Assembly: GCA_041389145.1 (NCBI GenBank)
Contig: JAWKSK010000001.1
Coordinates: 27,668-91,667 of the forward strand
Direction: 5' to 3'
DNA: 64,000 nucleotides
From: Patescibacteria group bacterium
GTDB taxonomy: Bacteria; Patescibacteriota; Kazan-3B-28
The translations under genes and the position numbers were made by a program. The notes under the pieces were generated by a model that was given only the letters and a program-made list of their open reading frames with translations, was not told the DNA's origin and searched no databases. This document shows, piece by piece, positions 6,703 to 61,294 of this stretch (the first letter of the stretch is position 1; each line of letters opens with the position of its first letter).

Positions 6703-8214
6703 TTATTTTGTTAGCACGGCTTCAATATGAGTTTTAAGCATGTCTTCTGCTTTGTCGGTAAGTTCCTTTTCGAGTTCAATAATTTGAATTAAGTCCTTAC
6801 CTTTCTGGGCAACATGACGGAAGAGTTCTTCAATTTTGGTAGGAATCTCTTTGGAGTCCACGGGATCGAGATAGCCACGGGAGGCGGCGTAGAGCACGAC
6901 TACTTCCTGCCAGAGGTTATAGGGTTCTCCAGCATCCTGGTTGAAGGCAGTAACGATACTTTTACCACGGTTTAAGGTAGCTTTGGTGGATTCATCTAAA
7001 TCAGAGGCAAACTGAGAGAAGGATTCCAGCTCGTAGTACTGAGCAAGGTCCAACTTCACGGTACCGGCCACCTTTTTCATGATTTTGGTCTGAGCTGCAC
7101 CTCCTACACGAGATACTGAGATTCCCACGTCGATAGCTGGACGAATACCCTTGTTGAACAAGGTACCGTTTAAGAAGATTTGACCATCGGTAATGGAGAT
7201 AACGTTGGTAGGAATGTAGGCAGAAACGTCTCCGGCTTGAGTTTCAATAATAGGCAGAGCGGTAATAGAACCACCACCGTAATCTTTGTTTAACTTTACG
7301 GCACGTTCCAACAAGCGGGAGTGAAGGTAGAAGACATCTCCAGGGTAAGCTTCACGTCCTGGAGGACGCTTCAAAAGCAAGGAAATTTCACGATAGGAAA
7401 CAGCATGCTTGGAAAGATCATCGTAAATTACCAATACGTCTAAGCCTTTATCAGCAAAGAATTCGGCAACAGCAGCACCAGCGTATGGAGCTAAGAACTG
7501 CATCGCTGCAGATGAGCTGGCAGGAGCAGAAACGATAATGGTGTAATCCATAGCTTCGGCATCTGCTAACTGCTGGTAGACCTGAGCAAGTTTGGATTCA
7601 CGTTGACCAATAGCAACATAGACACAGACAACCTTGCTACTCTTCTGGTTAATGATGGTATCAATAGCTAAGGTAGTTTTACCAGTCTGACGGTCACCAA
7701 TGATGAGCTCACGCTGACCTCTTCCAATTGGAACCAAGGCATCGATAGAGGTGTAGCCGGTTTGGAGTGGCTGGTTAACGGATTCACGAGCCATTACACC
7801 TGGGGCAATCTTTTCAATTGGATAGTTGTCGGTAGTCTTGATAGTTCCTCTACCATCTAGTGGGTTACCCAAAGGATCGATAACACGAGAAACTAATCCT
7901 TCTCCAACTGGAATGTTTAACAAATTACCAGATGAGGTAACAAAAGCACCTTCGGCAACTACGCTGGCATCTCCTAAAATAAGAGCTTTAGCAACACCTT
8001 GCTCTAGGTTCATGACCAGAGCTTTTACATCGGTATCTTTTATGGAAATAATCTCACTCATCAACAGCTGGGGCATGCCTTCAATGGTGATAACACCATC
8101 GGCTACGGAAGTAACGATACCGTGATGTTGTTTACCAGAAGTTGTAGCCTTGTCTTTGACGAGCACGGCTTCGACTTGGCGTAAAAATTCAGTTAGTTGT
8201 TTGTCTTGAGCCAT
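6703..8214 (-). CDS. atpA: F1 ATP synthase subunit alpha
   Basis: 503 aa; Walker A GDRQTGKT; strong alpha-subunit motifs throughout. Confidence 0.97.
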   Translation of the reverse strand: MAQDKQLTEFLRQVEAVLVKDKATTSGKQHHGIVTSVADGVITIEGMPQLLMSEIISIKDTDVKALVMNLEQGVAKALILGDASVVAEGAFVTSSGNLLNIPVGEGLVSRVIDPLGNPLDGRGTIKTTDNYPIEKIAPGVMARESVNQPLQTGYTSIDALVPIGRGQRELIIGDRQTGKTTLAIDTIINQKSSKVVCVYVAIGQRESKLAQVYQQLADAEAMDYTIIVSAPASSSAAMQFLAPYAGAAVAEFFADKGLDVLVIYDDLSKHAVSYREISLLLKRPPGREAYPGDVFYLHSRLLERAVKLNKDYGGGSITALPIIETQAGDVSAYIPTNVISITDGQIFLNGTLFNKGIRPAIDVGISVSRVGGAAQTKIMKKVAGTVKLDLAQYYELESFSQFASDLDESTKATLNRGKSIVTAFNQDAGEPYNLWQEVVVLYAASRGYLDPVDSKEIPTKIEELFRHVAQKGKDLIQIIELEKELTDKAEDMLKTHIEAVLTK

Positions 8215-12659: not shown

Positions 12660-13606
12660 TACTTAGATTTGGGGACCAAGGCAGACCCCAGTTTTTCTAA
12701 TTGAGAGATGAAAGGCAGGGCAAGTAGAACAGAACCAACGTTTACTAAAATGTGAGCATTAGCAAGCAATCTGGCAGGGTTGGCGGTTTCTGGGGTAATA
12801 GCTAGCATAAAGGAAGTGAATTGCGGTAACGTGCTCATGATAATAAGGCCAACTATGAGACTAAAGACAAATGAGGCTCGAGCAACCACCTTTCCAGGCC
12901 TTTTGGTTAGTAGTGAGGCGATGTTTTCAGTAATAGTGGTTCCAATATCTGCTCCCAAGAAGAATGGGATGAGCGATATTGCAGGAACCACACCTGAAAT
13001 AACAAGTGCAAGGGCAATTCCCGTGGAGGCAGAGCTGGACTGAATGACAGCGGTGATGATAATACCGGCCAAAAAGACTGACCAAGGGTTTTGAATTAGA
13101 TCAACAATCTGGAGTTGGAAGGATAGATCCCAAGCGGAAGAAAAGGCATGTGACATGAGAAAGATTCCTAGAAATATCATCCCAACAGTTATAGTTACCA
13201 AGCTTGCGAATCTTAAGGCGTGTCTTTGTTGGCTAAAAAGAAACAGGATAACACCAATAAAGAGAATGTATGGTCCCCAACCAAGGGCTGGTGAGGCAAT
13301 AAACTGATCTAGGATTGTGGTACCAATATTGGCTCCTAAAAAGATTAAGATACCGGATCTGATGGTGATTAGTTTTGAACCTGTAAGAATTACTGCCAAT
13401 GAGGAAATTAAAGAACTGGATTGGACAATAGCAGTTGTCAGTAAACCAGAGCCAAGCGCCACCAATGGGCGCCCGGTTATGTTTTGAAGTCGCTCACGAA
13501 CATGGTCTTTTGCCAATGCTTCTGCGTGTCTAGATAATAGGTAGACACCTAATAGAAAGATGGCGAGACCACTAATTAATATCGGAAGCGGACTATCGAA
13601 TAACAT
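12659..13606 (-). CDS. Na+/phosphate cotransporter family protein
   Basis: 315 aa polytopic protein; duplicated QSSSA/GANIGTT-type motifs (IVQSSSLISS, GANIGTTILD, IQSSSASTG, GADIGTTITE). Confidence 0.85.
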   Translation of the reverse strand: MLFDSPLPILISGLAIFLLGVYLLSRHAEALAKDHVRERLQNITGRPLVALGSGLLTTAIVQSSSLISSLAVILTGSKLITIRSGILIFLGANIGTTILDQFIASPALGWGPYILFIGVILFLFSQQRHALRFASLVTITVGMIFLGIFLMSHAFSSAWDLSFQLQIVDLIQNPWSVFLAGIIITAVIQSSSASTGIALALVISGVVPAISLIPFFLGADIGTTITENIASLLTKRPGKVVARASFVFSLIVGLIIMSTLPQFTSFMLAITPETANPARLLANAHILVNVGSVLLALPFISQLEKLGSALVPKSK

Positions 13607-14390: not shown

Positions 14391-14414
14391 TTAACGGCTC
14401 ATTATTTTGAGCCG
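14391..14414. repeat. REP-like hairpin, copy 2 (AACGGCTCA-ttattt-TGAGCCGTT), overlapping the dus stop codon
   Basis: Same arms as the copies at 3800 and 45549. Encodes the last codons ..SNGSK* of the dus remnant. Confidence 0.75.
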
Positions 14415-15391
14415 TTGGAGTAAAGGAAGTTTTCTACGATCTGAGAAAGTTGCTCATAATCTGTTGCTTCCATAAGTTCTGCTCTGACCTTAGCGGCACC
14501 ATCAAAGCCGTTAACGTAGGCTTTGTAGTGCTTTTTCATAATATCTAAAGGTTTAATCTCCCCTAATAGATCTATGTAGAGTTTGGTGTGTTCTAACATT
14601 ACACGCAGTTTTTCAGCTACTGGGAGGTTTTCAACATCTACCTCTTCGTTATACAGCCAAGGATTACCAAAAATACCACGGCCAATCATAACTCCATCAC
14701 ATCCAGTCTCCTCTACTCTGGCCTTAGCTTCTTCTAAGTTTTGGACATCCCCATTGCCAAAGATAAGGGGTCGGTCTTTGGGGTCTGGGAAGAGTTCATG
14801 AGCGATTTCTACAGCTCGTTTAATGGTGCCCCATCTTGCAGGAACCTTAGACATTTCATTACGAGTACGGGCATGAATAGTTAATACGGCAGGTTGGGCT
14901 TCAATTAGCATTCTAATCCAGGTTTCGGTTTCGTCTTCACGGTATCCAGATTCAACATAATGTAACGGATACTGTAGATCACCAGCACCTGCCTTAGTAG
15001 CTACAACAACTTTTACTAGTTGTGTAAGTGCTTAATCAATCCAGCTCCAGCTAATGACTTTTCAATATCTTTAGAAGGACATCCTATATTGATATCAATT
15101 CCATCAAAACCAAGCTCTGCTATTGAGAGTTCTGCGGCTTTAGTAAAGTTTGGTTTACCACCAAAGATTTGAGCTACGATAGGTCGCTCTGATTCATCAA
15201 CCAAAGATCCGGTAACAGATTCTTTCCACCCCTCGGCCATCATAACAGACAAATTCGTCCATAAAACAGCGGTTTGCTAGTATTTGGCAATTAATTATCA
15301 ATGCGGCGTCGGTGACATCTGCTATAGGCGCTTGCACCATAATTGGTGTTGGCAAAATTGGCCCAAAATCCTTTGTGGATGCTATTTTCAT
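14402..15391 (-). pseudogene. dus: tRNA-dihydrouridine synthase, disrupted by at least 2 frameshifts
   Basis: Three fragments in different frames: MKIASTKDFGPILPTPIMVQAPIADVTDAA.. (15391 downward), ..ERPIVAQIFGGKP..IDINIGCP.. (15252-15016, ending in TAG TAA), and VKVVVATKAG..LTIHARTR..MIGRGIFGNPW (from about 15010 to 14402). Confidence 0.8.
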
Positions 15392-15412
15392 CCCAAATAA
15401 CCAATATATACT

Positions 15413-15454
15413 ACGGAAAGAAAAGAGGGTCGCTGCGGTGAGCAGCAACCCTCT
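15413..15454 (-). terminator. Strong intrinsic terminator closing the candidate RNA
   Basis: Minus strand AGAGGGTtGCTGC-tcacc-GCAGCgACCCTCT followed by TTTCTTTCC. Confidence 0.8.
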
Positions 15455-15881
15455 GACTTAAACCTTTAACAGGTGTAGCTTGTGGAAACACCTGCATAGG
15501 TAGATCCCCTGGGTATCCCTTAAGTCTATGGAGGAAGCAAGGTATGATACGGTATCTGCTAGAGAAGCTACCGACCGGCAAGCCCGCAGCTTTGCCTTGG
15601 GAGGCGAAGGGGGTTATGGGAAAACGGGAAATTGGAGTAGTTGGTAGCCAAAGCTTGAGTAAAGCCCGGGAGTTGATGACGGGATCACGTTGAATTTGTT
15701 CACCAACTCCCTAGACCTAAGCTTTTGAGGTAGCTTGCGCCCACCAGATACGGGATGGATGACCCGGTGGGGTATTTGTTGATAACTCACTTCAGGTTAC
15801 ATTTGGGGAATGAGTAAAGGGCAGGCTCCAGGTCATGCCTGGTTTATCTTTTTCCTATTTTCCAATCAAGGTTCGTGTGTT
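15455..15881 (-). ncRNA. Candidate structured RNA of unknown class (about 430 nt)
   Basis: No ORF on either strand. Many local helices, e.g. CCAGG/CCUGG, CCCACC..GGUGGG, GGGAGUUG..CAACUCCC, GGCAA..UUGCC, CAGGUG..CACCUG. Extended -10 (TGGTATATT, plus-strand 15888-15896) upstream and a terminator downstream. G-U pairs favour the minus strand. Confidence 0.5.
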
Positions 15882-16540
15882 ACCGGCAATATACCACAAA
15901 ATTATGAGAAAATAAAGACATGAATAAAAATCAATATTGGAATAGGGATTGGCGCATATTGGGAATTATAGTTTGTGGGGTAAAATAAAGAGTAATTCAC
16001 CAGTTGCAGAAATGTTAAAGAAAAGCTTGCCGCAAGTAGTGAGTGGTGAGCAGAAAATATACACTGCACAATTTCCAGGAATAGATAATCATTATAATTT
16101 TGATCTGTAATACCTTCTAGTTGGAAAGCAGAAGCAGTACCTGCGATAGATGCAATTAATTTCTACGATCCAAGAACAGAAGGAAGTAACTTAGAGCAAT
16201 CTCTGAATATTTGTATGTATTTTACAGCAAGTAGATTCCTAACTCACCACCGTGGATATTTTGGAACCAAAGAGAACTTGAGGTAGGAAGACCAGCGGTG
16301 GAATATGAGATTAAAAGCAGCTGGGATTGCTAACTTTGCAAGCTAGCCTAGCTGAGAAGGAACAACATATAGTTATAGATGTTCTAAAGTAACAGCAGCA
16401 ATAGCACATTCTATGTAATTGCAAAAACCCACAGTTAAGTGATGTTGTGTATCAAAGTTTTTAGACAACTTAGATTTAGATCCAAGTGAATGAAATTAGT
16501 TGGGCAGATCCAATTGCAGATTGGAAAAGGAGTGACCAAG

Positions 16541-16975
16541 AAACCGTTTGGAATTTACATCACACCTGCTACGTCCCCAGTTCAACCGAAAGTTTTGAAG
16601 GATATCACACGGCTATCGAGCAGAGTATGAAGATGGTGATGACCTGTCCCATATGTAATTGCTAATGGGAAACAGTTATTGCAAAAGCTGCTCAGGGATA
16701 TGGTAGTGATTGTGATAGACTACAGACCTTGGGCTGAAGTATATTCCTATATGCATATACAACAATCGATGTACTACTGACCAAGGGCAGGAACTATAGT
16801 TGGAGCAGGTGAAGAGATAGGAACATTAGCAGAGGGCTTTACACGCGCTTCTGGTGGTGAGAGAAAGCATCTGCATTTTGGAATGATAACAAATACCCAA
16901 CCACTATTGGCTGGGTATGTTGCAAATGAGTCAGAACTTACAAGCTGGTTAGATCCAGCAACAATTTTAGACTAG
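16541..16975 (+). pseudogene. M23 (LytM) family metallopeptidase remnant
   Basis: Own translation gives ESFEGYHTAIE (HxxxD-like), ..VIVIDYRPWAEVYSYMH.., an in-frame TGA at 16778, then AGTIVGAGEEIGTLAEGF..GGERKHLHFGMI. Several stops and frame changes. Region 15900-16540 is also ORF-free and probably the decayed N-terminus. Confidence 0.7.
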
Positions 16976-24067: not shown

Positions 24068-25189
24068 TTAGGTTCTAGGACCTCCATTCATGCACTGCTT
24101 CAGAGCATCCAGGATGCCGTCTTCAACTACTCCGGTCTCCTCCAGGTTGACCAGAGGGGTAAGCTCGGGGTCCTTCTCGGCGAGGAATTCGAGGAGACGA
24201 ACCTTGATATCTTTGAGCTGGTCAGAGATTTCATCCAACTTCTCATGCTCGAAGCGTGAGAGTTCCTGGCGAGTGTAGTCGATCCTCCTGAACTCTTCGC
24301 AGAGCTTGTAGGGCTCACCGCGAGTGTCAGTGAACATTTCCGCGAGTCGCCGGACCTTCTGGAATACCTCATTCGCAGCAAGGTACAGCTTGCGGAAGGC
24401 ATCAAGCTCCGAATGATCTTTTACCACGACCTTGAAGTGTCGTGTGGATTTGTAATCGACCTGAACCACCCGCTGCTCCACCACTTCCCTCAGCTCTGGA
24501 TCGTAGCAGAGGTAGGGGTCCCTACCTGATACCTGAACCCGGTCACTGAGAGTGGAGAGGGTTTCTCCTGAAATGCGAGTAGCGAACTTGATGAACGCAT
24601 ACTCGCGGTTGTTAACCTCGAAGTTGGTCGCTTCACCGATGACCATGTCACTCCCTGCCATCGGTGCATCGAACCCTAGACCAATTTCGTCCAGGTAGTA
24701 ATAGCCTCCGTAGCTGGGCTTCACAACCCCCGGAGTGCATATACAGAACGACGACTTGATCTGTTCGTCGAGGTAGAAAATGTCCTTCAGACCCCCGACG
24801 AGAACAGGTAACAGGTCTGCCGTGGTAGCCACGGAATCGTTGCCCACCTTGTAGTACCCCATCAGGGGAACCACCAGACCGTCAATCCATCTCAAGGTGC
24901 TGAGGTCAACCTCAACGCTCTCGAACCTGAATTCACTGCTCTGCCCAATCCAGAAACGATAGATCTCCATAAAGAAGATCAGTTCTGAGAAGTGGGTGTT
25001 GACGTCGTAGCCGATCTCTACCGCTATTCTGCGGAATCTAGCGCCCTTACGGACGATAGTCTTGGTGGAACGCATGATGACAGCCATGACAATGGCCTCA
25101 AATCCAGCGTTGTGCTTGATTCCAACCTCAATCATCCTGATGAGTCTAGGAGTCAGTACATCCTTAGGATTAAAGGATCTTGAAGACAT
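24068..25189 (-). CDS. Hypothetical protein (GC-richer unit)
   Basis: 373 aa; SD GGAGGTGG; own promoter and terminator; no recognisable motif. Confidence 0.75.
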   Translation of the reverse strand: MSSRSFNPKDVLTPRLIRMIEVGIKHNAGFEAIVMAVIMRSTKTIVRKGARFRRIAVEIGYDVNTHFSELIFFMEIYRFWIGQSSEFRFESVEVDLSTLRWIDGLVVPLMGYYKVGNDSVATTADLLPVLVGGLKDIFYLDEQIKSSFCICTPGVVKPSYGGYYYLDEIGLGFDAPMAGSDMVIGEATNFEVNNREYAFIKFATRISGETLSTLSDRVQVSGRDPYLCYDPELREVVEQRVVQVDYKSTRHFKVVVKDHSELDAFRKLYLAANEVFQKVRRLAEMFTDTRGEPYKLCEEFRRIDYTRQELSRFEHEKLDEISDQLKDIKVRLLEFLAEKDPELTPLVNLEETGVVEDGILDALKQCMNGGPRT

Positions 25190-25295
25190 AATCCACCTCC
25201 GAAATCTGGACCAGATAGGCCCAGGTGAGATTACTGATACTCACAACAAATTATATGGGTGCATCCTCGATGTTTTGGATTTGAGGATTCAAATA

Positions 25296-25324
25296 AGTGT
25301 ATAACAGTTTTACATTTTTGTCAA
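25296..25324 (-). promoter_or_regulatory. Promoter for 24068-25189
   Basis: Minus strand TTGACA-N17-TACACT, preceded by the mini-hairpin GCTC-tca-GAGC and a T-rich tract. Confidence 0.6.
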
Positions 25325-25371: not shown

Positions 25372-26508
25372 CTAACTCCTTCCGAGCGAATGGCGGTATA
25401 TTTCTTCTACCTCCTTAGCCATATTCTTGGCCGAAAACTTTCGAAGAGTTTCTGCGTAATGACTAACAATCTTCTTCTGAAGCTTCTTATCATTTAGGAG
25501 CTTTAGCATGGTAGCGCTAAGGTTTTTAACGTTCCCTGATTCAAATAGTAGTCCATTGTAGTTATCGGTGATTATTTCTGGGATACCCCCTACCCGACTA
25601 GCAATAATTGGGACTTGTGCCCGCATGGCTTCAAGGATAGATATTCCAAAGGCTTCAGAACGGGATGGAAGGATAAATAGATCCATACTAAATAGAGCTG
25701 TGTTTACATCTGCCAATGCACCTGCAAATCTCACTGAATCTTTTATATCAAGTTTTTTAACAAGGTTTTGAAGTTCTCTCAGTCGCTCCCCTTTTCCAAT
25801 AATCAGTAGTTTAGTGTTGGGCCATTTGGTGTGCATGTTGGCAAAAGCTTTTATAAGTACATCGGTATCCTTTTGTTTGTTTAAAGACCCAATGGTACCA
25901 ACTAGTAGATCCCTTGGTGATACATCCAAACTGGCACGATACTTTTTGATTGCTACTTCACTTGGCTTGGACTTGAGTGAATCAATTCCATTGTGAATAA
26001 TTGAAACTTTATCTGGTTTAGTGATACCTGAGCTGACCAAGAAAGTTCTTACAGAATCACTAACTGCAATAGTGTGATTGGTGAGACGATCCAACACTTT
26101 CATTGCCCGTAGATGAGTCCAGTGGAGAACGGGATTATTGAGTTTAAAGTTATCAGTATAGGTGTGTTCGGTATGGATATTGATTAAAGACAATCCACGG
26201 CTTGCTACTCTCCCCAATAAACCTGCTCTTTGACCATGAGTGTGGACAATATCTGGTTCATACTTTTGTAATAGTTTATGAATCGCTGAAGAAGCAGAGA
26301 GATCCGTCATCCCTTGCATGGGAACGGTGAATACTGGCACTTTCAGCTTCTTTAGCTCATCAACTAAATCGCCTTCGGGAAGGATAACAGAAACAACAAA
26401 CTGAGAACGGTCGATATGCGATAACAGAGCCAATAAATGTCTTGGGGCGCCGGTTAAAGAGCTGTCGGCGATGATTTCAAATACACTGATTTTAGATGTT
26501 CTTGGCAT
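25372..26508 (-). CDS. GT4-family glycosyltransferase
   Basis: 379 aa from the ATG at 26508 (MPRTSKISVFEII..). C-terminal E..FGISILEAMRAQVPIIASRVGGIPEII motif. The upstream 107 codons of the ORF overlap the neighbouring gene. Confidence 0.88.
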   Translation of the reverse strand: MPRTSKISVFEIIADSSLTGAPRHLLALLSHIDRSQFVVSVILPEGDLVDELKKLKVPVFTVPMQGMTDLSASSAIHKLLQKYEPDIVHTHGQRAGLLGRVASRGLSLINIHTEHTYTDNFKLNNPVLHWTHLRAMKVLDRLTNHTIAVSDSVRTFLVSSGITKPDKVSIIHNGIDSLKSKPSEVAIKKYRASLDVSPRDLLVGTIGSLNKQKDTDVLIKAFANMHTKWPNTKLLIIGKGERLRELQNLVKKLDIKDSVRFAGALADVNTALFSMDLFILPSRSEAFGISILEAMRAQVPIIASRVGGIPEIITDNYNGLLFESGNVKNLSATMLKLLNDKKLQKKIVSHYAETLRKFSAKNMAKEVEEIYRHSLGRS

Positions 26509-26527
26509 GACTTCATTATAACATTTT

Positions 26528-26557
26528 GAAAATAAAAAACGGCCCAGAAACTGAGCC
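26528..26557 (-). terminator. Terminator after 26582-26893
   Basis: Minus strand GGCTCAG-ttt-CTGGGCC followed by GTTTTTTATTTT. The wobble pair is valid only on the minus strand. Confidence 0.75.
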
Positions 26558-26581
26558 ATTTGGAATGGATTAGACCGGTGC

Positions 26582-26893
26582 CTAACCAGGGCAGATTCGT
26601 GGGAGAAACCGACTGAAGCGGCCAGGTTCTTTGCTGCTATCAGCATCCCTCTCCTTCTGGTATTTATCACGGGGTTTACCGCTCCCAAAAATGCGAGAAT
26701 CCTCATGGATTCTTGTGATACAGTCTGGAATTGGATTGAGCCCATCAAAGGGAACGAATTCGATGATAACACAACCAGTCTCGTTGCAGTAACCACACGG
26801 AAATCCAAAATGATCAGGGAATGATCCATCTTGTGTTATTCCTGTACCGTTGCATTTGAAACACACAGCACTGACAGTGCGGGTTCGATACAT
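26582..26893 (-). CDS. Small DnaJ-type zinc-finger-like protein (array module 5)
   Basis: 103 aa; CFKCNGTG (CxxCxGxG) and CGYCNETG; SD GGAGGG. Confidence 0.7.
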   Translation of the reverse strand: MYRTRTVSAVCFKCNGTGITQDGSFPDHFGFPCGYCNETGCVIIEFVPFDGLNPIPDCITRIHEDSRIFGSGKPRDKYQKERDADSSKEPGRFSRFLPRICPG

Positions 26894-26963
26894 ATTGCCC
26901 TCCAGGGTTCATTGATATCTGAATGTCAGACCACCTGGGTATATCCTCAGGAATTCAGGGGAA

Positions 26964-26992
26964 GTATATGGCTTGATGTGGCAAAATGTCAA
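26964..26992 (-). promoter_or_regulatory. Promoter for 26582-26893
   Basis: Minus strand TTGACA-N17-ATATAC. Confidence 0.55.
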
Positions 26993-27071
26993 ATCTAGTA
27001 TAGAAAAAACGCCCATTCCTTGATGCAATCGCAGTTTGGGCATTAGTGTTTCTGACAGGAAGTCTGGGATG

Positions 27072-27419
27072 TTAGTCGCAAGGCGGACAGCAAGGAAGTG
27101 TGACGGGTTCGTAGAAAGAATCACCATCATATTTTCCTTTATCACGACCCTCCCAATCCAAATTTTCTTTCATTCTCCGATTTATGTCCCCACAAAGCAG
27201 GCGGACATTGTTGGCACCGTACTTGTCCGAGAGTTCCTCAAGAGTGCAACCCATCAGTTGATCCATCTGCATGCGATCGACCATATTGATGTCAGGTATA
27301 TTGTCGACCATTTCTCGGTTAATGATACCTGATTTCATCAACGACTCGATAATACCGTTAGGGATAAATTCCACCTTTTCATCTTTGTTTAAACGAAGTT
27401 GCCTATCATAATCGATCAC
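27072..27419 (-). CDS. Small protein with a sigma70-region-4-like HTH pattern (array module 4)
   Basis: 115 aa; GTG start 7 nt after TAGGAGG. CTLEELSDKYGANNVRLLCGDINRRMKE parallels TLEEIG..FGVTRERIRQIE.KA. Cys-rich C-terminus LPCCPPCD. Confidence 0.65.
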   Translation of the reverse strand: MIDYDRQLRLNKDEKVEFIPNGIIESLMKSGIINREMVDNIPDINMVDRMQMDQLMGCTLEELSDKYGANNVRLLCGDINRRMKENLDWEGRDKGKYDGDSFYEPVTLPCCPPCD

Positions 27420-27507
27420 GTGATCACCTCCTAATGTACATTCTCAGATTGCTGAGTATCCTACTTCTTACGAAGTGACCTGCCGAGGTCGGTCAGGAAT
27501 TAGGCCT

Positions 27508-27537
27508 ATACTACCTTCAAAATACCGTGGGTGTCAA
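27508..27537 (-). promoter_or_regulatory. Promoter for 27072-27419
   Basis: Minus strand TTGACA-N18-TAGTAT, with the mini-hairpin CTCCT-ttac-AGGAG plus an AT tract just upstream. Confidence 0.6.
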
Positions 27538-27570
27538 ATTAAAATTAGCTCCTGTAAAGGAGATTTAGCT

Positions 27571-27608
27571 GGTGGCATCTTAGATGAGGTTGGAACTTAT
27601 CTAAGAGA
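27571..27608. repeat. Array spacer repeat, copy A (variant)
   Basis: GGTGG--CATCTTAGATGAGGTTGGAACTTATCTAAGAG; the palindrome core is 27579-27605. Confidence 0.9.
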
Positions 27609-27615
27609 GTTTGGG

Positions 27616-27669
27616 TATAAAAATAACCTCCTGGCATCTACCCGTATTTCAGGGTGACACCGGGAGGTT
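27616..27669 (-). terminator. Terminator after 27694-28089
   Basis: Minus strand AACCTCCCGG..(25-nt loop)..CCAGGAGGTT followed by ATTTTTATA. Confidence 0.65.
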
Positions 27670-27693
27670 TCTTCTGAATGCGATCCCTTCGGT

Positions 27694-28089
27694 TTAGACG
27701 AGCTCACACATCGCTTGGAAGAGGATCTGTTTGATCTGCTTACCCTTAGCACCAGAGTAAGCCTTTCCCAGTTCCTTGAGAGAAGGGGGCGGACTCAGTT
27801 TGGTAAGGCGGGCAGACAGAGCTGTTACCTCTCTGTCGGCTTCTTCGTATGCCTCAAACGCATAGATGAGGTCTTCTAGGTTGGTTGCTGAATTAGCAAG
27901 TTCACCTATTACCAAGATGAAGTCTTCATCCTTCTTGTCCCACTCCAAGTACAGATCCTTCCAGCTGGAAAAACCGTTTATACCGGGAAAATCCTTAGGC
28001 AAGTACTCGTGTGTGGCGAAGTAGAGCTTGACCGCAGTTGCTACTCCGACTGCTGCCACAGTAACTTCTGGATTATTACGTTCTGACAT
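27694..28089 (-). CDS. Hypothetical protein (array module 3)
   Basis: 131 aa; SD AAGGAG 5 nt before the ATG; own promoter and terminator. Confidence 0.7.
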   Translation of the reverse strand: MSERNNPEVTVAAVGVATAVKLYFATHEYLPKDFPGINGFSSWKDLYLEWDKKDEDFILVIGELANSATNLEDLIYAFEAYEEADREVTALSARLTKLSPPPSLKELGKAYSGAKGKQIKQILFQAMCELV

Positions 28090-28145
28090 CCATACTCCTT
28101 TATAAAGAACTCCACAGAGCCCCTTGTGGTAAATTGACTAGGTAT

Positions 28146-28175
28146 ATAGTAGTTCCAAATATCCGCAAGTGTCAA
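28146..28175 (-). promoter_or_regulatory. Promoter for 27694-28089
   Basis: Minus strand TTGACA-N18-TACTAT. Confidence 0.6.
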
Positions 28176-28208
28176 ATAAAAATATAGTCTCACAAAGGTG
28201 ATTTAGCT

Positions 28209-28250
28209 GGTGGAGCATCTTAGATGAAGTTGGAACTTATCTAAGAGTGA
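28209..28250. repeat. Array spacer repeat, copy B
   Basis: GGTGGAGCATCTTAGATGAAGTTGGAACTTATCTAAGAGTGA; palindrome core 28219-28245; identical to copy C. Confidence 0.95.
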
Positions 28251-28262
28251 ATAGGTTAGATT

Positions 28263-28297
28263 TTAAAATAAAAAAGGTCGGAATTTCACCGACCTTT
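28263..28297 (-). terminator. Terminator after 28336-29058
   Basis: Minus strand AAAGGTCGG-tgaaatt-CCGACCTTT followed by TTTATTTTAAAA. Confidence 0.85.
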
Positions 28298-28335
28298 GCC
28301 CTATGATCCGGGCGGAATTGTTATCAGGGGAAACT

Positions 28336-29058
28336 TCAGTTAACCTCAAGACGAACCAAAAAGGGGTCCTCCTGGAAGGGGAAACCTTGATTGTATGCGA
28401 TTACGTAGTTACCAGGCGTAACCCACAGAGTAGATGTGCCGAGATACCCTTTATCGTGATGCTCTCTCTCGTAATCAGGAACGGCGTGGAACTTAGCGTA
28501 GACCCCACTTGGTCGTCCTGACTCATCCTCTCGAAAGATGATGGCACAGGAGTTGTTGCTGTAGGCCAAGTTATCCACTGTCGAGAAGCCATTGAAGTAG
28601 AAGGTCAACAGACAGCCTCTGACCTCTACTGTGGGGACCTTCTCAATATCATAGCTGAAGTCCCACATTGAGATCCAGCTTGCCATCTGATCTGCTCTCT
28701 CCAGGTCTTCGTTAAGGCTGGGGAGCCTTGTGATTGTGGTCTGGGGATAAGAAGAGCAGATGTAAACGTCCGGGAACAAGTCCGAAATGAGACCTAGACC
28801 TGACAGCACCTCCACAACCATTGGGTCCTGTTGTTCGATTGTCTGATCGACGTAAAGCCAGGGTGGGGTTGGTGGGTATCTGTAGAGATCCCAGAACTTC
28901 TCGTAGTCCAACTGATCACTCTTGTTTGTGATAGTAAGACTGAAATTCAGGAGATCGCCCCCGTCTCCCTCTTCTTCGGCTGAAGCCACGGAGGTGCAGA
29001 GGGGAATGCTGAGCATAGCAAGCAGCAACCACAGTGCCACTCTAACGATGTGTTTCAT
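28336..29058 (-). CDS. Secreted hypothetical protein (array module 2)
   Basis: 240 aa from the ATG at 29058 (SD GGGAG). Signal peptide MKHIVRVALWLLLAMLSIPLCTSVASA. The ORF-track start at 29082 lacks an SD. Confidence 0.75.
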   Translation of the reverse strand: MKHIVRVALWLLLAMLSIPLCTSVASAEEEGDGGDLLNFSLTITNKSDQLDYEKFWDLYRYPPTPPWLYVDQTIEQQDPMVVEVLSGLGLISDLFPDVYICSSYPQTTITRLPSLNEDLERADQMASWISMWDFSYDIEKVPTVEVRGCLLTFYFNGFSTVDNLAYSNNSCAIIFREDESGRPSGVYAKFHAVPDYEREHHDKGYLGTSTLWVTPGNYVIAYNQGFPFQEDPFLVRLEVN

Positions 29059-29135
29059 AGTTTTCTCCCTGTAGAAGAGCATTGTTGCTTAGAAAGGACT
29101 AAGCCACCCGTATTTTGGATTTCGGGAATTAATTA

Positions 29136-29164
29136 TATATTACTTTTATTTACTAAAAAGTCAA
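29136..29164 (-). promoter_or_regulatory. Promoter for 28336-29058
   Basis: Minus strand TTGACT-N17-AATATA. Confidence 0.5.
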
Positions 29165-29183
29165 TCCAGGACTGTATTTATAT

Positions 29184-29225
29184 GGTGGAGCATCTTAGAT
29201 GAAGTTGGAACTTATCTAAGAGTGA
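29184..29225. repeat. Array spacer repeat, copy C
   Basis: Identical 42 nt to copy B; palindrome core 29194-29220. Flanking AGTGAAyAGGTTwGATTTTA is also shared with B. Confidence 0.95.
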
Positions 29226-29242
29226 ACAGGTTTGATTTTAGT

Positions 29243-29274
29243 ATGAAAATGCCACCTGGAGAGTGCGTGGTGGC
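29243..29274 (-). terminator. Terminator after 29334-29828
   Basis: Minus strand GCCACC-acgcactctcca-GGTGGC followed by ATTTTCAT. Confidence 0.65.
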
Positions 29275-29333
29275 TACGCATAACATTGCTGTCTTGGTCA
29301 GGATGACCAACTCTTGATGAACACGCTGGGTGG

Positions 29334-29828
29334 TTAGTCGAAGTTCTCTGTTTCAGATTCAGCTTTCGCTTTCATCGACTCGTACTTGAGCCTGGACCTC
29401 TGCCTCATCTTGGCAACCCAAGAGCTGATTGTGAAACTCTTGGGCGGACCGAAGAGCCTTACTTCAGCAACCTCGGTTGTCCTGTGACCCTGCGTTGCCT
29501 CTATGACCAATACGTAATGGACGACGTCATCCGCAAGGTTTCGCAGACTCTCTCCGACGGTCATACCTTTGAGATCCGTGTAGCCGTCTGTGATCTCATC
29601 CTGGCTGACGGTCTCAATCCATTCACCTTTTTTGTTGAACAGGTAAATGGATCGGGAAAATGAGAAACATCCTACCTCTTCAATCTGGGGGATCATCTCC
29701 AGAAGCTGCTCGTCTATTCTCTGGTAGAGAAACTTGATCTGATAGCCCTGTAGTCCTTTCAAGAACGGCTCTATGAAAGGATGCCTGACGAGAAACTCGT
29801 CATTGTCGAAGTGATTTGTGCGACACAT
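29334..29828 (-). CDS. Hypothetical protein (array module 1)
   Basis: 164 aa from the ATG at 29828 (MCRTNHFDNDEF..), 7 nt after AAGGAG. The ORF-track start at 29966 lies upstream of the predicted -10 (29957-29962) and is therefore unlikely. Confidence 0.65.
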   Translation of the reverse strand: MCRTNHFDNDEFLVRHPFIEPFLKGLQGYQIKFLYQRIDEQLLEMIPQIEEVGCFSFSRSIYLFNKKGEWIETVSQDEITDGYTDLKGMTVGESLRNLADDVVHYVLVIEATQGHRTTEVAEVRLFGPPKSFTISSWVAKMRQRSRLKYESMKAKAESETENFD

Positions 29829-29956
29829 TTGATTCTCCTTTTCGCATTCCACGAAAACCGAGGCCAGCATTCCACTGTAGGCCTCAGAGAACAATCCAGA
29901 CGATTTGTTGAGATTTATCATCTGGAGAATAATAGAAAGAACAATTTTATGTGTGT

Positions 29957-29985
29957 ATTCTATCAAAACATACTATACTTGTCAA
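29957..29985 (-). promoter_or_regulatory. Promoter for 29334-29828
   Basis: Minus strand TTGACA-N17-TAGAAT, with the mini-hairpin CTCTG-tcc-CAGAG plus a T tract just upstream. Confidence 0.6.
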
Positions 29986-30016
29986 TCAAAAATTAGCTCT
30001 GGGACAGAGTTTTTAT

Positions 30017-30027
30017 GGTGGAGCATC
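30017..30027. repeat. Truncated copy D of the array repeat at the gltX boundary
   Basis: GGTGGAGCATC matches the left flank of copies B and C. The sequence diverges exactly where the palindrome would begin and continues into the gltX terminator hairpin TTGCAC..GTGCAA. Confidence 0.7.
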
Positions 30028-30054
30028 GGGGAATTGCACCAGATGTGCAAAAAC

Positions 30055-31359
30055 TTAATTTCCTATTTTAGCGAGTGCTAATTCTAACCGCGATAAGGAT
30101 TCTTCCTTACCCAATGCCTCTAATATCTCAACAGGACTTGGACTACCCATAAGACCAGAGAGTGCGACTCTAATTGGCCAGAATAAATCCCCTGGGTTTA
30201 AGGCTTCTGCATCAAGAGTGTGGTCTAAAATCTGTTGTAGTTTATCTTGATTCCAGTCTTGATGGTTTATTTCCTTTAGGACTGAATATCCTGCCTGGAG
30301 TCCTTTTTGGGTTTGGTCTGGACTGGATTTTTTAAAGACTAACATACTTGCTTCATAGTCTGGGAGGTCAAAGAAGAAGGAGATGAGCTCTGGAAGTTGA
30401 TCGAAATACTGTGCACGATCTTGAGTTAACTTAAGAGCAGATTCGAGTAACGTTTTATTTCCTTCAAATTGTTTAACAAATGGGTGGGCTAATTCCTGGT
30501 ACTCTGTAAATGGGAGCCTGGATAAGTAGTGATGATTGAGGTAATTGAGATGTTTTAGGTTAAATACTGCACCCCCTTTTTGGACACGTTCTAAAGCAAA
30601 CTTATCCACGAGTTCGTCTAGATTAAATATTTCTTGACCATCTTTATCGCTCCAACCAAGTTGGACTAGAAAGTTAATGAGAGCGGGTTGAATATAACCC
30701 TTATTGATGTATTCAGTTAAAGAGGTGTCACCGCTTCGCTTGCTCATCTTGGAACGATCTTCATTAAGGATTAGCGGCATATGAGCAAAGGTGGGAACTT
30801 CGGCACCCAATGCTTGGTATATCATGATGTGCTTTGGAGTGTTGCTTAAGTGATCTTCTCCTCTAATTACATGAGTAATACCCATAGTGATATCATCGAC
30901 AACATTGGCAAAGTGGAAGGTAGCGTTGCCATCTTTTTTCAAGAGCACAATATCGTCAAAGTCTTTGGAGTTGAATTCAACATCTCCACGGATTAGATCG
31001 TGAACTACAATTTTCTGATCATCGGTTGGGATACGTAAGTAGAGCCCCCCGTCTTGTTCGTAGGTAAGTCCAGCTGTTGTGAGTTGATCAGCGTGAGCCT
31101 TATAAATATCGGCTCGTTCGGATTGACGATAGGTTTCATCTGGATTTAAACCAAGCCAGTTGAGACCTTTAATAATATCTTCGTAATAGACCTCTTCACT
31201 ACGTTTGGTATCGGTGTCTTCTACACGCAGTACAAAAACACCATTTTGCTTGCGAGCAAAAAGATAGTTAAACAAAGCAGACCTAGCTCCTCCAATATGG
31301 AGGGGGCCGGTAGGACTTGGGGCAAATCTAACTTTAATTGCTTGTTTCATAGTTACCAC
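30055..31359 (-). CDS. gltX: Glutamate--tRNA ligase
   Basis: 434 aa; RFAPSPTGPLHIGGAR (HIGH) and KMSKRS (KMSKS). Confidence 0.95.
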   Translation of the reverse strand: MVTMKQAIKVRFAPSPTGPLHIGGARSALFNYLFARKQNGVFVLRVEDTDTKRSEEVYYEDIIKGLNWLGLNPDETYRQSERADIYKAHADQLTTAGLTYEQDGGLYLRIPTDDQKIVVHDLIRGDVEFNSKDFDDIVLLKKDGNATFHFANVVDDITMGITHVIRGEDHLSNTPKHIMIYQALGAEVPTFAHMPLILNEDRSKMSKRSGDTSLTEYINKGYIQPALINFLVQLGWSDKDGQEIFNLDELVDKFALERVQKGGAVFNLKHLNYLNHHYLSRLPFTEYQELAHPFVKQFEGNKTLLESALKLTQDRAQYFDQLPELISFFFDLPDYEASMLVFKKSSPDQTQKGLQAGYSVLKEINHQDWNQDKLQQILDHTLDAEALNPGDLFWPIRVALSGLMGSPSPVEILEALGKEESLSRLELALAKIGN

Positions 31360-36149: not shown

Positions 36150-36194
36150 TATCAGGTCTGAAAGGCAATTTAAAAACAAGGTGAGGAGTTGGAA

Positions 36195-37133
36195 ATGAGG
36201 ATTTATGGAATCTTGCTGAGTATCGTCTCTGCCATCTTTCTGATGGCATGTAGCACCAGTGTCCAGATGGATACTGTTCGGAATAGCCCCGAGGTAACCA
36301 ACCCGGAGCTGATCAGCTACCTGACTGAGGAGTTGGGGAAGGAGATTGCCAACCTGGACACCTCCTTCGCTTCCCGTCCTCCGTCTGATCCCGTGATGCT
36401 GACAAGCATCAGCAACCACGTCAACGGCTGGTTGTATGTTTACTGGCAACACAAGATTACCGGCGACTACAACAACGACGGTGTGGTTGACCAGGCTGAT
36501 ATCACCCCGATTGCCAGCAACTGGCAACGAGTAGAGGGTGGCGCCAACTGGATGTTTGCAGAAAGCGCTGATGGTGACGGCAACGGCATCATCAACGCTG
36601 CTGACCTGGTGCCCATCGCTCGCCACTATGGCGAGAGTGTGGACCACTACCTGACCCAGTATCAGGATGCTGACGGCAATTGGTTAACGAATGGCCTGAC
36701 GTACTACTGGGACAGCGATGTTGTTCGTAACAACGGTGAGGTACTCAGTCACTGCACATCCCAGGTCAACTACGAAGGAATGGAAGCATTTCGAGTCGTA
36801 GCAGTGGATGACGAGGGAATCATTGGACCTGCAAGCAATGTTGTCACTCGTGAAAGCATTCGCCCAAAGCTACTTACGATTACCCCAGATCCAACAACTA
36901 TCTTCAAGGTTGGTGATGTGGTGGAGTTTACAGCCCAGTTCGAAGGCGTGGATCTGATTGAGGTTCGATGGGATCTGGTGATGGACAGTTTACACAACTA
37001 CAGCTATGGATTTGGGGAGAGTTCGACTCTACCGTCCACCATGTTCAGCCCTGGGACTTACCGGCTGACTCTGTCCTATGGCAATGACCTGGGACGAGAG
37101 TTCCTGGAATACGACGTTGTTGTCGAGGAATGA
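36195..37133 (+). CDS. Lipoprotein with two dockerin-type Ca-binding repeats (GC-richer unit)
   Basis: MRIYGILLSIVSAIFLMAC lipobox. GDYNNDGVVDQADITPIASNW and DGDGNGIINAADLVPIARHYG. ATG at 36195, 6 nt after GGTGAGGAG. Confidence 0.8.
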   Translation: MRIYGILLSIVSAIFLMACSTSVQMDTVRNSPEVTNPELISYLTEELGKEIANLDTSFASRPPSDPVMLTSISNHVNGWLYVYWQHKITGDYNNDGVVDQADITPIASNWQRVEGGANWMFAESADGDGNGIINAADLVPIARHYGESVDHYLTQYQDADGNWLTNGLTYYWDSDVVRNNGEVLSHCTSQVNYEGMEAFRVVAVDDEGIIGPASNVVTRESIRPKLLTITPDPTTIFKVGDVVEFTAQFEGVDLIEVRWDLVMDSLHNYSYGFGESSTLPSTMFSPGTYRLTLSYGNDLGREFLEYDVVVEE

Positions 37134-38852: not shown

Positions 38853-38905
38853 TATCTCATAAATTCAAGATGTAATTAAAAATACCCACACAGGGATATT
38901 TTAAT

Positions 38906-38990
38906 TGGTGGCTGAGGAGGGACTCGAACCCTCAAGTCTTGCGACACACGATTTTGAGTCGTGCGTGTATACCAATTCCACCACTCAGCC
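38906..38990 (-). tRNA. tRNA-Leu (anticodon CAA), long variable arm, CCA encoded
   Basis: Hand-folded: acceptor GGCTGAG/CTCAGCC, anticodon stem CACGA/TCGTG, loop CTCAAAA, T-arm AGGGTTCGAGTCCCT. Confidence 0.88.
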
Positions 38991-61132: not shown

Positions 61133-61236
61133 AGACACACCTCCTGTACAGGTATTGATTGTAAGTACTTACATCCTCGAAAACTTCCATGTTCTCAAGG
61201 TTCGCATCTGCTTTTAAGGCAGACTTATACACTACT

Positions 61237-61278
61237 TTTATATCACAAAAGAGCAAATTTGTCAAGTAATTTGCTCTC
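61237..61278 (-). promoter_or_regulatory. Combined terminator and promoter: the terminator of 61295+ carries the -35 of the next gene in its loop
   Basis: Minus strand AGAGCAAATT-acTTGACA-AATTTGCTCT followed by TTTGTG. TTGACA-N17-TATAAA reads into 58466-61132. Confidence 0.6.
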
Positions 61279-61294
61279 AGATTGATAAATTAAA

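Follow-up and report, generated by a model that had tools for sequence, protein, structure and literature searches.

We analyzed the interval between gltX and a GT4 glycosyltransferase gene in a 64-kb stretch of DNA (hereafter, the window) from a Patescibacteria group bacterium. The interval holds five co-oriented minus-strand open reading frames (ORFs), G1 to G5, all of which were found at the coordinates given for them in an earlier reading of this DNA (hereafter, the original prediction). It is probably an array of horizontally acquired single-gene cassettes, individually transcribed according to their predicted signals, that accumulated by site-specific insertion at a site of the type of the 3' end of the transfer-messenger RNA (tmRNA) gene, ssrA. 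A modular cassette array was one of the two possibilities raised in the original prediction, and the related genomes agree with it: the interval is absent in the nearest GTDB genome, a closer relative has different cassettes, and G3 recurs elsewhere, bounded by repeats (see below).

A metagenome scan for the palindrome described below gave three contigs, all from metagenome Ga0079224, and additional ssrA loci were fetched via smpB homologues; the related loci are referred to by number (L001 and so on). The cassettes G3, G4, and G5 are closed by a repeat that consists, in gene sense, of a 29-nt imperfect palindrome (TCTTAGATAAGTTCCAACTTCATCTAAGA), which folds as a 12-bp stem with one bulged C, and directly thereafter of GATGCTCCACCA; on the 3' side of GATGCTCCACCA come NNNAAAT, a 4-6-bp hairpin, and a T-rich stretch reaching the -35 element. 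The three full copies (27576-27607, 28216-28247, and 29191-29222; 0 expected by chance) and a partial copy without the palindrome (30016-30040) are all in direct orientation. A profile search found no further copy in the window outside the array, and a generic genome-wide repetitive extragenic palindrome was rejected on this ground.

The 12-nt GATGCTCCACCA is a copy of the acceptor 3' strand of tmRNA plus ACCA, and has GCTCCACCA in common with genuine ssrA. The Rfam-confirmed tmRNA genes in L003, L007, L016, and L021 (147-157 bits) all end ...CCCCCCAGCTCCACCA; that of L003 (147 bits) ends ...GGGGGTGCAATTCCCCCCAGCTCCACCA, and that of L007 scored 150 bits. The sequence after gltX of the window (GGTGCAATTCCCC-GAT-GCTCCACCA-TAAAAACTCTGTCCCAGAGC..TTGACAA) can be aligned position by position with the end of the tmRNA gene, starting in the T-stem, so that the fragment at 30016..30040, aligned to the tmRNA ends of these four loci, corresponds to part of the T-stem, the T-loop, the acceptor strand, and ACCA. 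Positions 29979-30040 of the window are 88.7% identical over 62 nt to L007 6126-6187, including the promoter of the first cassette after tmRNA. Because of this alignment, and because no full tmRNA gene is present in the window, we read the start of the array as a displaced 25-nt ssrA 3' fragment. Copies of tRNA and tmRNA 3' ends are the classical footprint of integration at such genes; thus, the statement in the original prediction that the array is not any described system was too strong.

In the nearest GTDB genome, Kazan bacterium RIFCSPHIGHO2_01_FULL_44_14 (L001), gltX and the GT4 gene (54% identical to that of the window) are 176 nt apart with no array. In the closer relative, L004, GT4 is 85% identical to that of the window as protein and 77.5% as DNA, and upstream of it is a palindrome-ended array of four cassettes (assembled from L002 and L004, with a 56-nt overlap) encoding two orphans, a weak 2H-phosphoesterase-like protein, and a SemiSWEET-like protein plus an orphan, none of which is related to G1-G5. 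In the synteny comparison, the five genes were thus not shared by sister genomes.

Five related loci have small ORFs in the orientation of ssrA that fill the stretch from the 3' end of ssrA to smpB (or the gene neighboring smpB), and palindrome copies and/or CTCCACCA are found at the 3' ends of these ORFs. In L003, the tmRNA gene is followed, in the same orientation, by a SET-domain cassette, a degenerate palindrome with GATGCTCCACCA, a homologue of G3 whose promoter and leader match those in the window, its terminator, and a perfect palindrome with GATGCTCCACCA; the stop codon of the convergent smpB lies 2 nt past this last GATGCTCCACCA. G3 is thus present at two loci, gltX-GT4 in the window and tmRNA-smpB in L003: positions 27566-28251 of the window (the G3 cassette and the preceding repeat) are 84.6% identical to L003 5410-6097 over 688 nt, and the homology ends at the repeats. 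As estimated from the two copies (dN/dS 0.32, dS 0.42), G3 is under purifying selection, and because its dS is far below that of the native GT4 gene (1.93, window versus L004), a recent transfer of G3 is indicated, provided that L003 and L004 represent one population. L007 has four cassettes after tmRNA, each closed by the repeat. L003 and L007 are 94-99% identical in a 761-aa ORF, smpB, and tmRNA, and they have zero cassettes in common from the smpB stop to the tmRNA 3' end. The more distant L011, L013, L016, and L021 (smpB 65-74% identical) also have small ORFs co-oriented with ssrA next to smpB, with CTCCACCA or displaced tmRNA fragments at the cassette ends; the tmRNA genes were confirmed in L016 and L021. 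All cassettes point one way.

Two side observations concern these loci. In L016 (7660-7930, minus strand), an inverted tmRNA 3'-end copy stands right after the tmRNA terminator, followed by two ORF-less units of ~130 nt, each ending GGAAATCCCCCCAGCTC, which may be empty or decayed insertion units. A plus-strand family of 302-387 aa with no Pfam domain (L007 2559-3467, L011 8517-9596, L016 3978-5072, and the 387-aa ORFs of L012/L013) is found near smpB and, in loci with a visible array, lies between smpB and that array; the gene is directly after smpB in L007, L011, and L016 and is ~0.6-2 kb downstream in L012 and L013, whereas L003, in which the array reaches up to the smpB stop, does not have it.

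The limits of a cassette can be read from the array ends. The palindrome is present where arrays border on DNA other than cassettes, namely at the smpB stop of L003, at the GT4 promoter of L004, and at the native 302-aa ORF of L007, and is absent ahead of the first cassette, after tmRNA as after gltX. Because it is kept at the array ends and absent upstream of the first cassette, the palindrome is assigned to the 3' end of the cassette, not to the promoter downstream. The 5' module and the 3' spacer type of G3 are the same in both of its contexts, while the palindrome upstream differs; therefore, the unit starts directly behind one CCACCA and extends as far as the following one. A complete cassette has the order of small hairpin, sigma-70-type promoter, leader with Shine-Dalgarno (SD) sequence, one ORF, intrinsic terminator, 29-nt palindrome, and GATGCTCCACCA. 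The 5' modules recur elsewhere: that of G5 is identical to the module following the tmRNA gene in L007, that of G4 up to -35 is common with the unrelated cassette B of L002 (94% over 69 nt), and the c2|c3 junction of L007 matches the stretch from the palindrome to the -35 of G2 at 92.9% identity.

The right arm of the palindrome and the tmRNA end are the best-conserved parts, and the palindrome geometry (~11-nt arms around ~6 nt) fits a tyrosine-recombinase core. In L013 (~7481-7550), L016 (~7010-7081), and L021 (~13060-13125), conserved outer palindrome halves are split by a variable GC-rich hairpin of 25-33 nt; this variable center recalls the variable center of attC sites. Scans of the GTDB representative genomes and IMG/VR found no copy of the palindrome, and IMG/VR scans for TCTAAGATGCTCCACCA and for the tmRNA end of the clade gave two chance matches only. 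No RNA family was found in the array with Rfam in permissive mode. The palindrome as a tRNA-like minihelix or structured RNA was rejected, as it lies downstream of the terminators, the CCA is 12 nt from the stem, and covariation is lacking. A crossover in the palindrome center or the T-loop was also rejected, as the tmRNA genes are intact to CCACCA with cassette-specific sequence directly after. Note that the sequence after tRNA-Leu of the window (38880-38906, minus strand; CCACCA-ATTAAAATATCCCTGTGTGGGTATTT) has AAAT, a small hairpin, and a T-rich stretch in this order, as do all cassette junctions after CCACCA; in this layout, the junctions therefore mimic the 3' end of a tDNA plus its terminator.

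The claim of one promoter and one SD sequence per gene was borne out: near-consensus sigma-70-type promoters precede all of G1-G5 (Table 1), and a GGAG-type SD sequence is readable ahead of the five starts. Of nine matches to TTGAC[AT]-N16-18-TAnnnT on both strands of the window, six precede G1-G5 and G6 (a similar unit, see Table 1), and two of the other three precede tRNA-Gln and a DEAD-box helicase; the clustering is far from chance. Between the G3 copies of the window and L003, the promoter hexamers are kept and the spacer between them varies. The claim of a terminator for each gene holds in part: a hairpin with a T-run is readable for all five, but the terminator scan flagged only G1 and G4, those of G3, G5, and G2 were read by eye, and that of G2 is weak. 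In composition, the five genes are GC-richer than their flanks, as had been predicted (GC 43-50% and GC content at third codon positions (GC3) 0.41-0.62; GC3 of gltX, GT4, the helicase, and wecG, 0.29-0.39), and the GC3 of cassettes is elevated in every array (the window and related loci). G1-G5 and G6 are compositionally foreign compared with the native neighbors.

The cargo is almost all orphan. Sequence searches against Pfam, PHROGs, PADLOC, and PDB gave no family assignment for G1-G6, only sub-threshold matches, and none of the five proteins of the array received a housekeeping assignment, as the original prediction had it. G1, which had been described as a CxxCxGxG zinc-finger protein, has two CxxCxxxG motifs, of which CFKCNGTG is of the CxxCxGxG form but CGYCNETG deviates from it; its sole family match is a weak one to DnaJ_CXXCXGXG (E=0.03). 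The family searches lent no support to the reading of G2 as a sigma-region-4-like helix-turn-helix protein. The predicted secreted protein is G4, with an obvious signal peptide in its translation; no homologue besides itself was found among 5.8 billion proteins. G3 has a single database homologue (P0003), and G5 has 4 weak relatives only, among 1.84 billion representative proteins. The AlphaFold models of G4 and G3 (predicted local distance difference test scores of 35 and 45) were too poor for fold searches. All-against-all comparison of ~26 cassette ORFs from the window and related arrays gave only three shared families and at least 24 unrelated families.

Table 1. Layout of the array and its borders in the window (promoters with hexamers and spacer length)
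Feature	Coordinates	Strand	Description
gltX	30055..31359	-	native, left-hand array boundary; 64% identical to gltX of Kazan bacterium RIFCSPHIGHO2_01_FULL_44_14
tmRNA 3'-end fragment, 25 nt	30016..30040	-	GGTGCAATTCCCC-GAT-GCTCCACCA; left array end, starts 15 nt past gltX stop
cassette G5	29183..30015	-	ORF 29334-29828, 164 aa (NCBI start: 195 aa)
G5 elements		-	hairpin 29997-30009; promoter 29957-29985 (TTGACA-17-TAGAAT); hairpin + T-run ~29244-29274; palindrome 29193-29221; GATGCTCCACCA 29183-29194
cassette G4	28208..29182	-	ORF 28336-29058, 240 aa, signal peptide
G4 elements		-	promoter 29137-29164 (TTGACT-16-TAATAT); terminator 28273-28297; palindrome 28218-28246; GATGCTCCACCA 28208-28219
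cassette G3	27570..28207	-	ORF 27694-28089, 131 aa
G3 elements		-	promoter 28146-28175 (TTGACA-18-TACTAT); terminator ~27617-27669; palindrome 27578-27606; tmRNA-end copy with 2-nt deletion (GATGCCACCA) 27570-27579
unit G2	27004..27569	-	ORF 27072-27419, 115 aa, GTG start; no 3' palindrome or tmRNA-end copy
G2 elements		-	alpha-type 5' module + promoter 27508-27537 (TTGACA-18-TAGTAT); weak hairpin + T-run ~27004-27041
unit G1	26537..26992	-	ORF 26582-26893, 103 aa; promoter 26963-26992 (TTGACA-18-TATACT); no repeat
G1 terminator	26537-26561	-	abuts native GT4 promoter
GT4 glycosyltransferase	25372..26505	-	native, right-hand array boundary, outside array; Pfam Glycos_transf_1, 2e-41
unit G6	24068..25324	-	ORF 24068-25189, 373 aa orphan, GC3 0.65; no palindrome; far side of GT4
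G6 5' module	25296-25324	-	delta-type hairpin + TTGACA promoter (at 25324), GGCTCTCAGAGCGTATTTTATTGACAAAA

The unit G6, absent from the list of units in the original prediction, resembles the array units; its delta-type hairpin with TTGACA module is common to G6, G5, and the first cassettes after tmRNA in relatives, and its N-terminus has a weak homologue at the contig end of L004. GT4 thus has foreign-looking units on both sides (G1 and G6). The flanks in the window are bacterial housekeeping genes (gltX, glycosyltransferases, ATP synthase, gyrB, and pheST).

As for the mechanism, the stretch shared by ssrA and the cassette ends is 9-12 nt only, which is too short for RecA-type homologous recombination; for this reason, and because the same segment is used by the IntY islands, site-specific capture is favored. 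In Pseudomonas, the terminal ssrA segment is the crossover repeat of these islands (14-bp CCCCGGCTCCACCA; PMC12595487). The primary attachment site in the clade would be the ssrA 3' end, with arrays filling the ssrA-smpB interval, and the array after gltX in the genome of the window would be a second one, seeded by the 25-nt ssrA 3' fragment. The recombinase catalyzing the insertion would have its gene elsewhere in the genome and would most likely be a tyrosine integrase of the kind that targets the ssrA 3' end, with strand exchange presumably in or beside GCTCCACCA and with the palindrome as the putative binding site of the recombinase on the cassette. The cassettes would go through a circular form and be inserted in an orientation-specific manner, and their own promoter and terminator would make expression independent of array position. 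G2 and G1, which have no 3' repeat, may be older units with decayed ends or may have been acquired separately. Tentatively, and with less confidence than the array itself, we suggest an integron-like gene-capture platform in Patescibacteria, with the ssrA 3' end or a displaced copy of it as the acceptor, circular self-expressing cassettes, and a recombinase encoded elsewhere.

Several observations weigh against site-specific insertion of cassettes. In agreement with the original prediction, no integrase, transposase, or other recombinase was found among the ~40 ORFs of the window with Pfam; none was found within up to 10 kb of the related arrays either (as far as each contig extends), and neither an excised circle nor an empty site was observed in these data. 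The conserved repeat that had been predicted for the spacers is present as three full copies and one partial copy, but not in the G2/G1 and G1/GT4 spacers. In the left-end fragment, GAT stands in place of the CCA of genuine tmRNA genes, the sole difference (three positions), and a simple crossover in GCTCCACCA does not explain it. The palindrome shows no significant covariation, and the dS contrast of G3 presupposes that L003 and L004, from the same metagenome, are one population. While a chimera at the outer junctions is unlikely, the internal order of the cassettes could still be wrong. Lastly, four 5' module types (alpha, beta, gamma, and delta) are common to unrelated ORFs, with the homology ending just past -35; between G3 and c3 of L007, the 5' homology runs through the leader into the first three codons; and most junctions of L016 consist of a terminator and a promoter module only, without the palindrome.

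These last observations are what would be expected under the main rival, shuffling of the type of the promoter early stem-loop (PeSL) elements, in which the junction elements serve as portable homology for general homologous recombination, the tmRNA-end copies are relics, and no dedicated recombinase exists. The junction homology (70-110 nt at 85-100% identity), the breakpoints of the four module types just after -35, the junctions of L016, and the lack of a recombinase in the searches all accord with it, and PeSLs of T4-type phages have the same architecture and form mini-circles (PMC2839356). However, it leaves unexplained the first insertion beside ssrA (9-12 nt shared), the array ends lying exactly at CCACCA against non-homologous native DNA, and the strict co-orientation with ssrA; we thus consider it unlikely as the whole explanation. 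Since the 5' modules are shared between unrelated ORFs, homologous exchange within junction elements also shapes the arrays, and homologous shuffling may well act alongside site-specific capture.

It is improbable that the units are attR-proximal remnants of larger integrase-carrying islands or prophages once located at ssrA, whose integrases were later deleted. There is good documentation of additive tRNA/tmRNA islands that contain partial tRNAs, scattered within them, and degenerate elements (tycheposon preprint; Islander, PMC4383910), and the ORF-less 130-nt units of L016 end in tmRNA fragments. However, the format is uniform over five arrays (one ORF, 0.5-1.2 kb, own promoter, terminator, and palindrome) and zero integrase fragments were seen in them, although random decay should leave heterogeneous remnants.

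The other possibility raised in the original prediction, a native accessory regulon whose genes are co-regulated and have a spacer element in common, is not favored and is very improbable. The near-identical promoters and the inverted repeat upstream of three of them would suit the palindrome as an operator or activator site for the five promoters, but the palindrome center is ~56 nt upstream of -35, G5, G1, and G6 have no palindrome ahead of them, array ends with no cassette promoter downstream (smpB stop or GT4 promoter) do have one, and the genes are not conserved in relatives. The operator reading was rejected on the palindrome position; the palindrome is part of the cassette 3' end, and it is no generic genome-wide repeat, as all copies in the window are within the array. 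An assembly artifact, by which the repeats caused a chimeric join of an ssrA-locus array to gltX, is hardly credible: the window comes from a metagenome-assembled genome and 40-100-nt repeats can mislead short-read assemblers, but the gltX-fragment junction has only 13 nt in common with real tmRNA plus its own substitutions, the G1|GT4 junction has no repeat, and the independent assembly L004 also has a palindrome-ended cassette directly upstream of the GT4 orthologue.

Other features were noted in the window and in the related loci. A dihydrouridine synthase (Dus) gene (window 14402-15448, minus strand) is split into three overlapping ORFs (169, 78, and 83 aa) and is either a frameshifted pseudogene or an assembly error; next to it lies a stretch of ~1.5 kb (~15450-16960) in which neither strand has an ORF of at least 60 aa and in which tandem repeats and Rfam matches (E<0.4) are also absent. 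L001 (13606-19230) has what looks like a defense island at tRNA-Gln, adjacent to the conserved gltX-GT4 pair; the genes after the tRNA encode an AAA ATPase, a large serine recombinase, an EcoRI-type methylase, and a GmrSD nuclease. Dockerin-domain proteins in L004 (304-1581) and the window (36189-37133) have high GC3 (0.66 in L004) and 35% mutual identity, and in L004 the dockerin-domain gene is inserted between GT4 and the G6-like gene. Two very large ORFs are present at 58466-63895 of the window (minus strand), one of 890 aa in 51% GC DNA without a Pfam match, and the other of 866 aa with a domain typical of phage tail fibers, Peptidase_S74 (endosialidase chaperone).

Bacteria of the Candidate Phyla Radiation have tiny genomes, and their gene acquisition is poorly understood; the locus suggests a compact dedicated route, in which single genes would arrive pre-packaged with a strong promoter and terminator and be stacked at a tmRNA-end site. 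If an integron-like platform of this kind is real, it would be a fast-turnover reservoir of orphan genes for minimal-genome episymbionts. Should the recombinase be found, the locus would stand beside integrons as a new mechanism of cassette capture, would supply a compact att site and strong promoters for use in organisms that at present lack genetic tools, and would offer a defined setting for studying the origin and function of orphan genes. For annotation, short tmRNA-end copies can mark mobile units that have no integrase.

Full-text searches of the literature gave no description of integron-like or cassette systems at tmRNA or in Patescibacteria. Among known systems, the PeSLs resemble the array in that a strong sigma-70 promoter and a stem-loop terminator (read from the sequence here) separate small ORFans, and in that units delimited by the elements have been inserted, deleted, or replaced from one related genome to another (PMC2839356). 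However, PeSLs are found in hyperplastic regions of T4-type phages, whereas the array is on a bacterial chromosome with housekeeping flanks, its junctions add the palindrome and the tmRNA-end copy, and the arrays are anchored at tDNA; BLAST of the whole array against phage and plasmid collections found no similarity, and no PHROG matches were obtained. The tycheposons of Prochlorococcus share with it a streamlined genome and hypervariable islands next to tRNA/tmRNA genes, with partial tDNA repeats inside and newer elements pushing older ones inward, but they carry tyrosine recombinases and replication modules, neither of which was seen in these single-gene units. The geometry of ~11-nt arms around ~6 nt is like that of Xer/dif (pdif) sites (28-bp XerC-6 bp-XerD), but all copies here are direct whereas pdif modules alternate in orientation; the palindrome does not match what we take to be the dif consensus.

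The array resembles integrons and clusters of attC sites lacking integron integrases (CALINs) in its co-oriented single-ORF cassettes of ~0.5-1 kb, which end in an imperfect palindrome with an unpaired base and are stacked at one site, and in its cargo, which is mostly of unknown function and differs completely between close relatives. It differs from them in that no intI is found next to it (Pfam, the ~40 window ORFs and the ORFs around related arrays), in that the palindrome is 29 nt (longer, with a variable center, in distant relatives) as opposed to 57-141 nt for attC, and in that the attachment site is the tmRNA end, not attI. No pair of attC R''/R' boxes (RYYYAAC...GTTRRRY) was readable in 13 palindrome copies. 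Moreover, each cassette here has its own promoter and terminator, whereas integron cassettes are promoterless and rely on the common promoter Pc.

The ssrA islands (IntY islands I23/I44/I55 of Pseudomonas, Vibrio pathogenicity island 1 (VPI-1), and the Islander type) also have the last ~10-14 nt of the tmRNA gene as the target and a direct repeat of the target flanking the unit (14-bp CCCCGGCTCCACCA in Pseudomonas, PMC12595487; GATGCTCCACCA here), and ssrA/tDNA islands likewise show tandem accretion beside the gene with variable cargo (PMC12595487; PMC4383910). However, those islands are 10-100 kb and have their own tyrosine integrase, often with AlpA/Xis, whereas the units here are 0.5-1.2 kb with one ORF, a conserved palindrome, and their own promoter and terminator, and no integrase was found nearby; the array of the window is also located after gltX beside a 25-nt ssrA fragment, not at ssrA. 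As for the features used by Islander, a displaced 3' fragment as direct repeat is seen in the related loci (tmRNA, then cassettes ending GATGCTCCACCA or CTCCACCA), the window having the fragment only, and an island-encoded integrase was not seen among the ORFs of the window and related arrays. The known kind is thus that of additive tDNA-anchored islands, for which we found no description of a miniature format with one self-promoted gene per unit and no integrase; although it functions in the manner of integrons and of tandem ssrA islands, the array belongs to neither.

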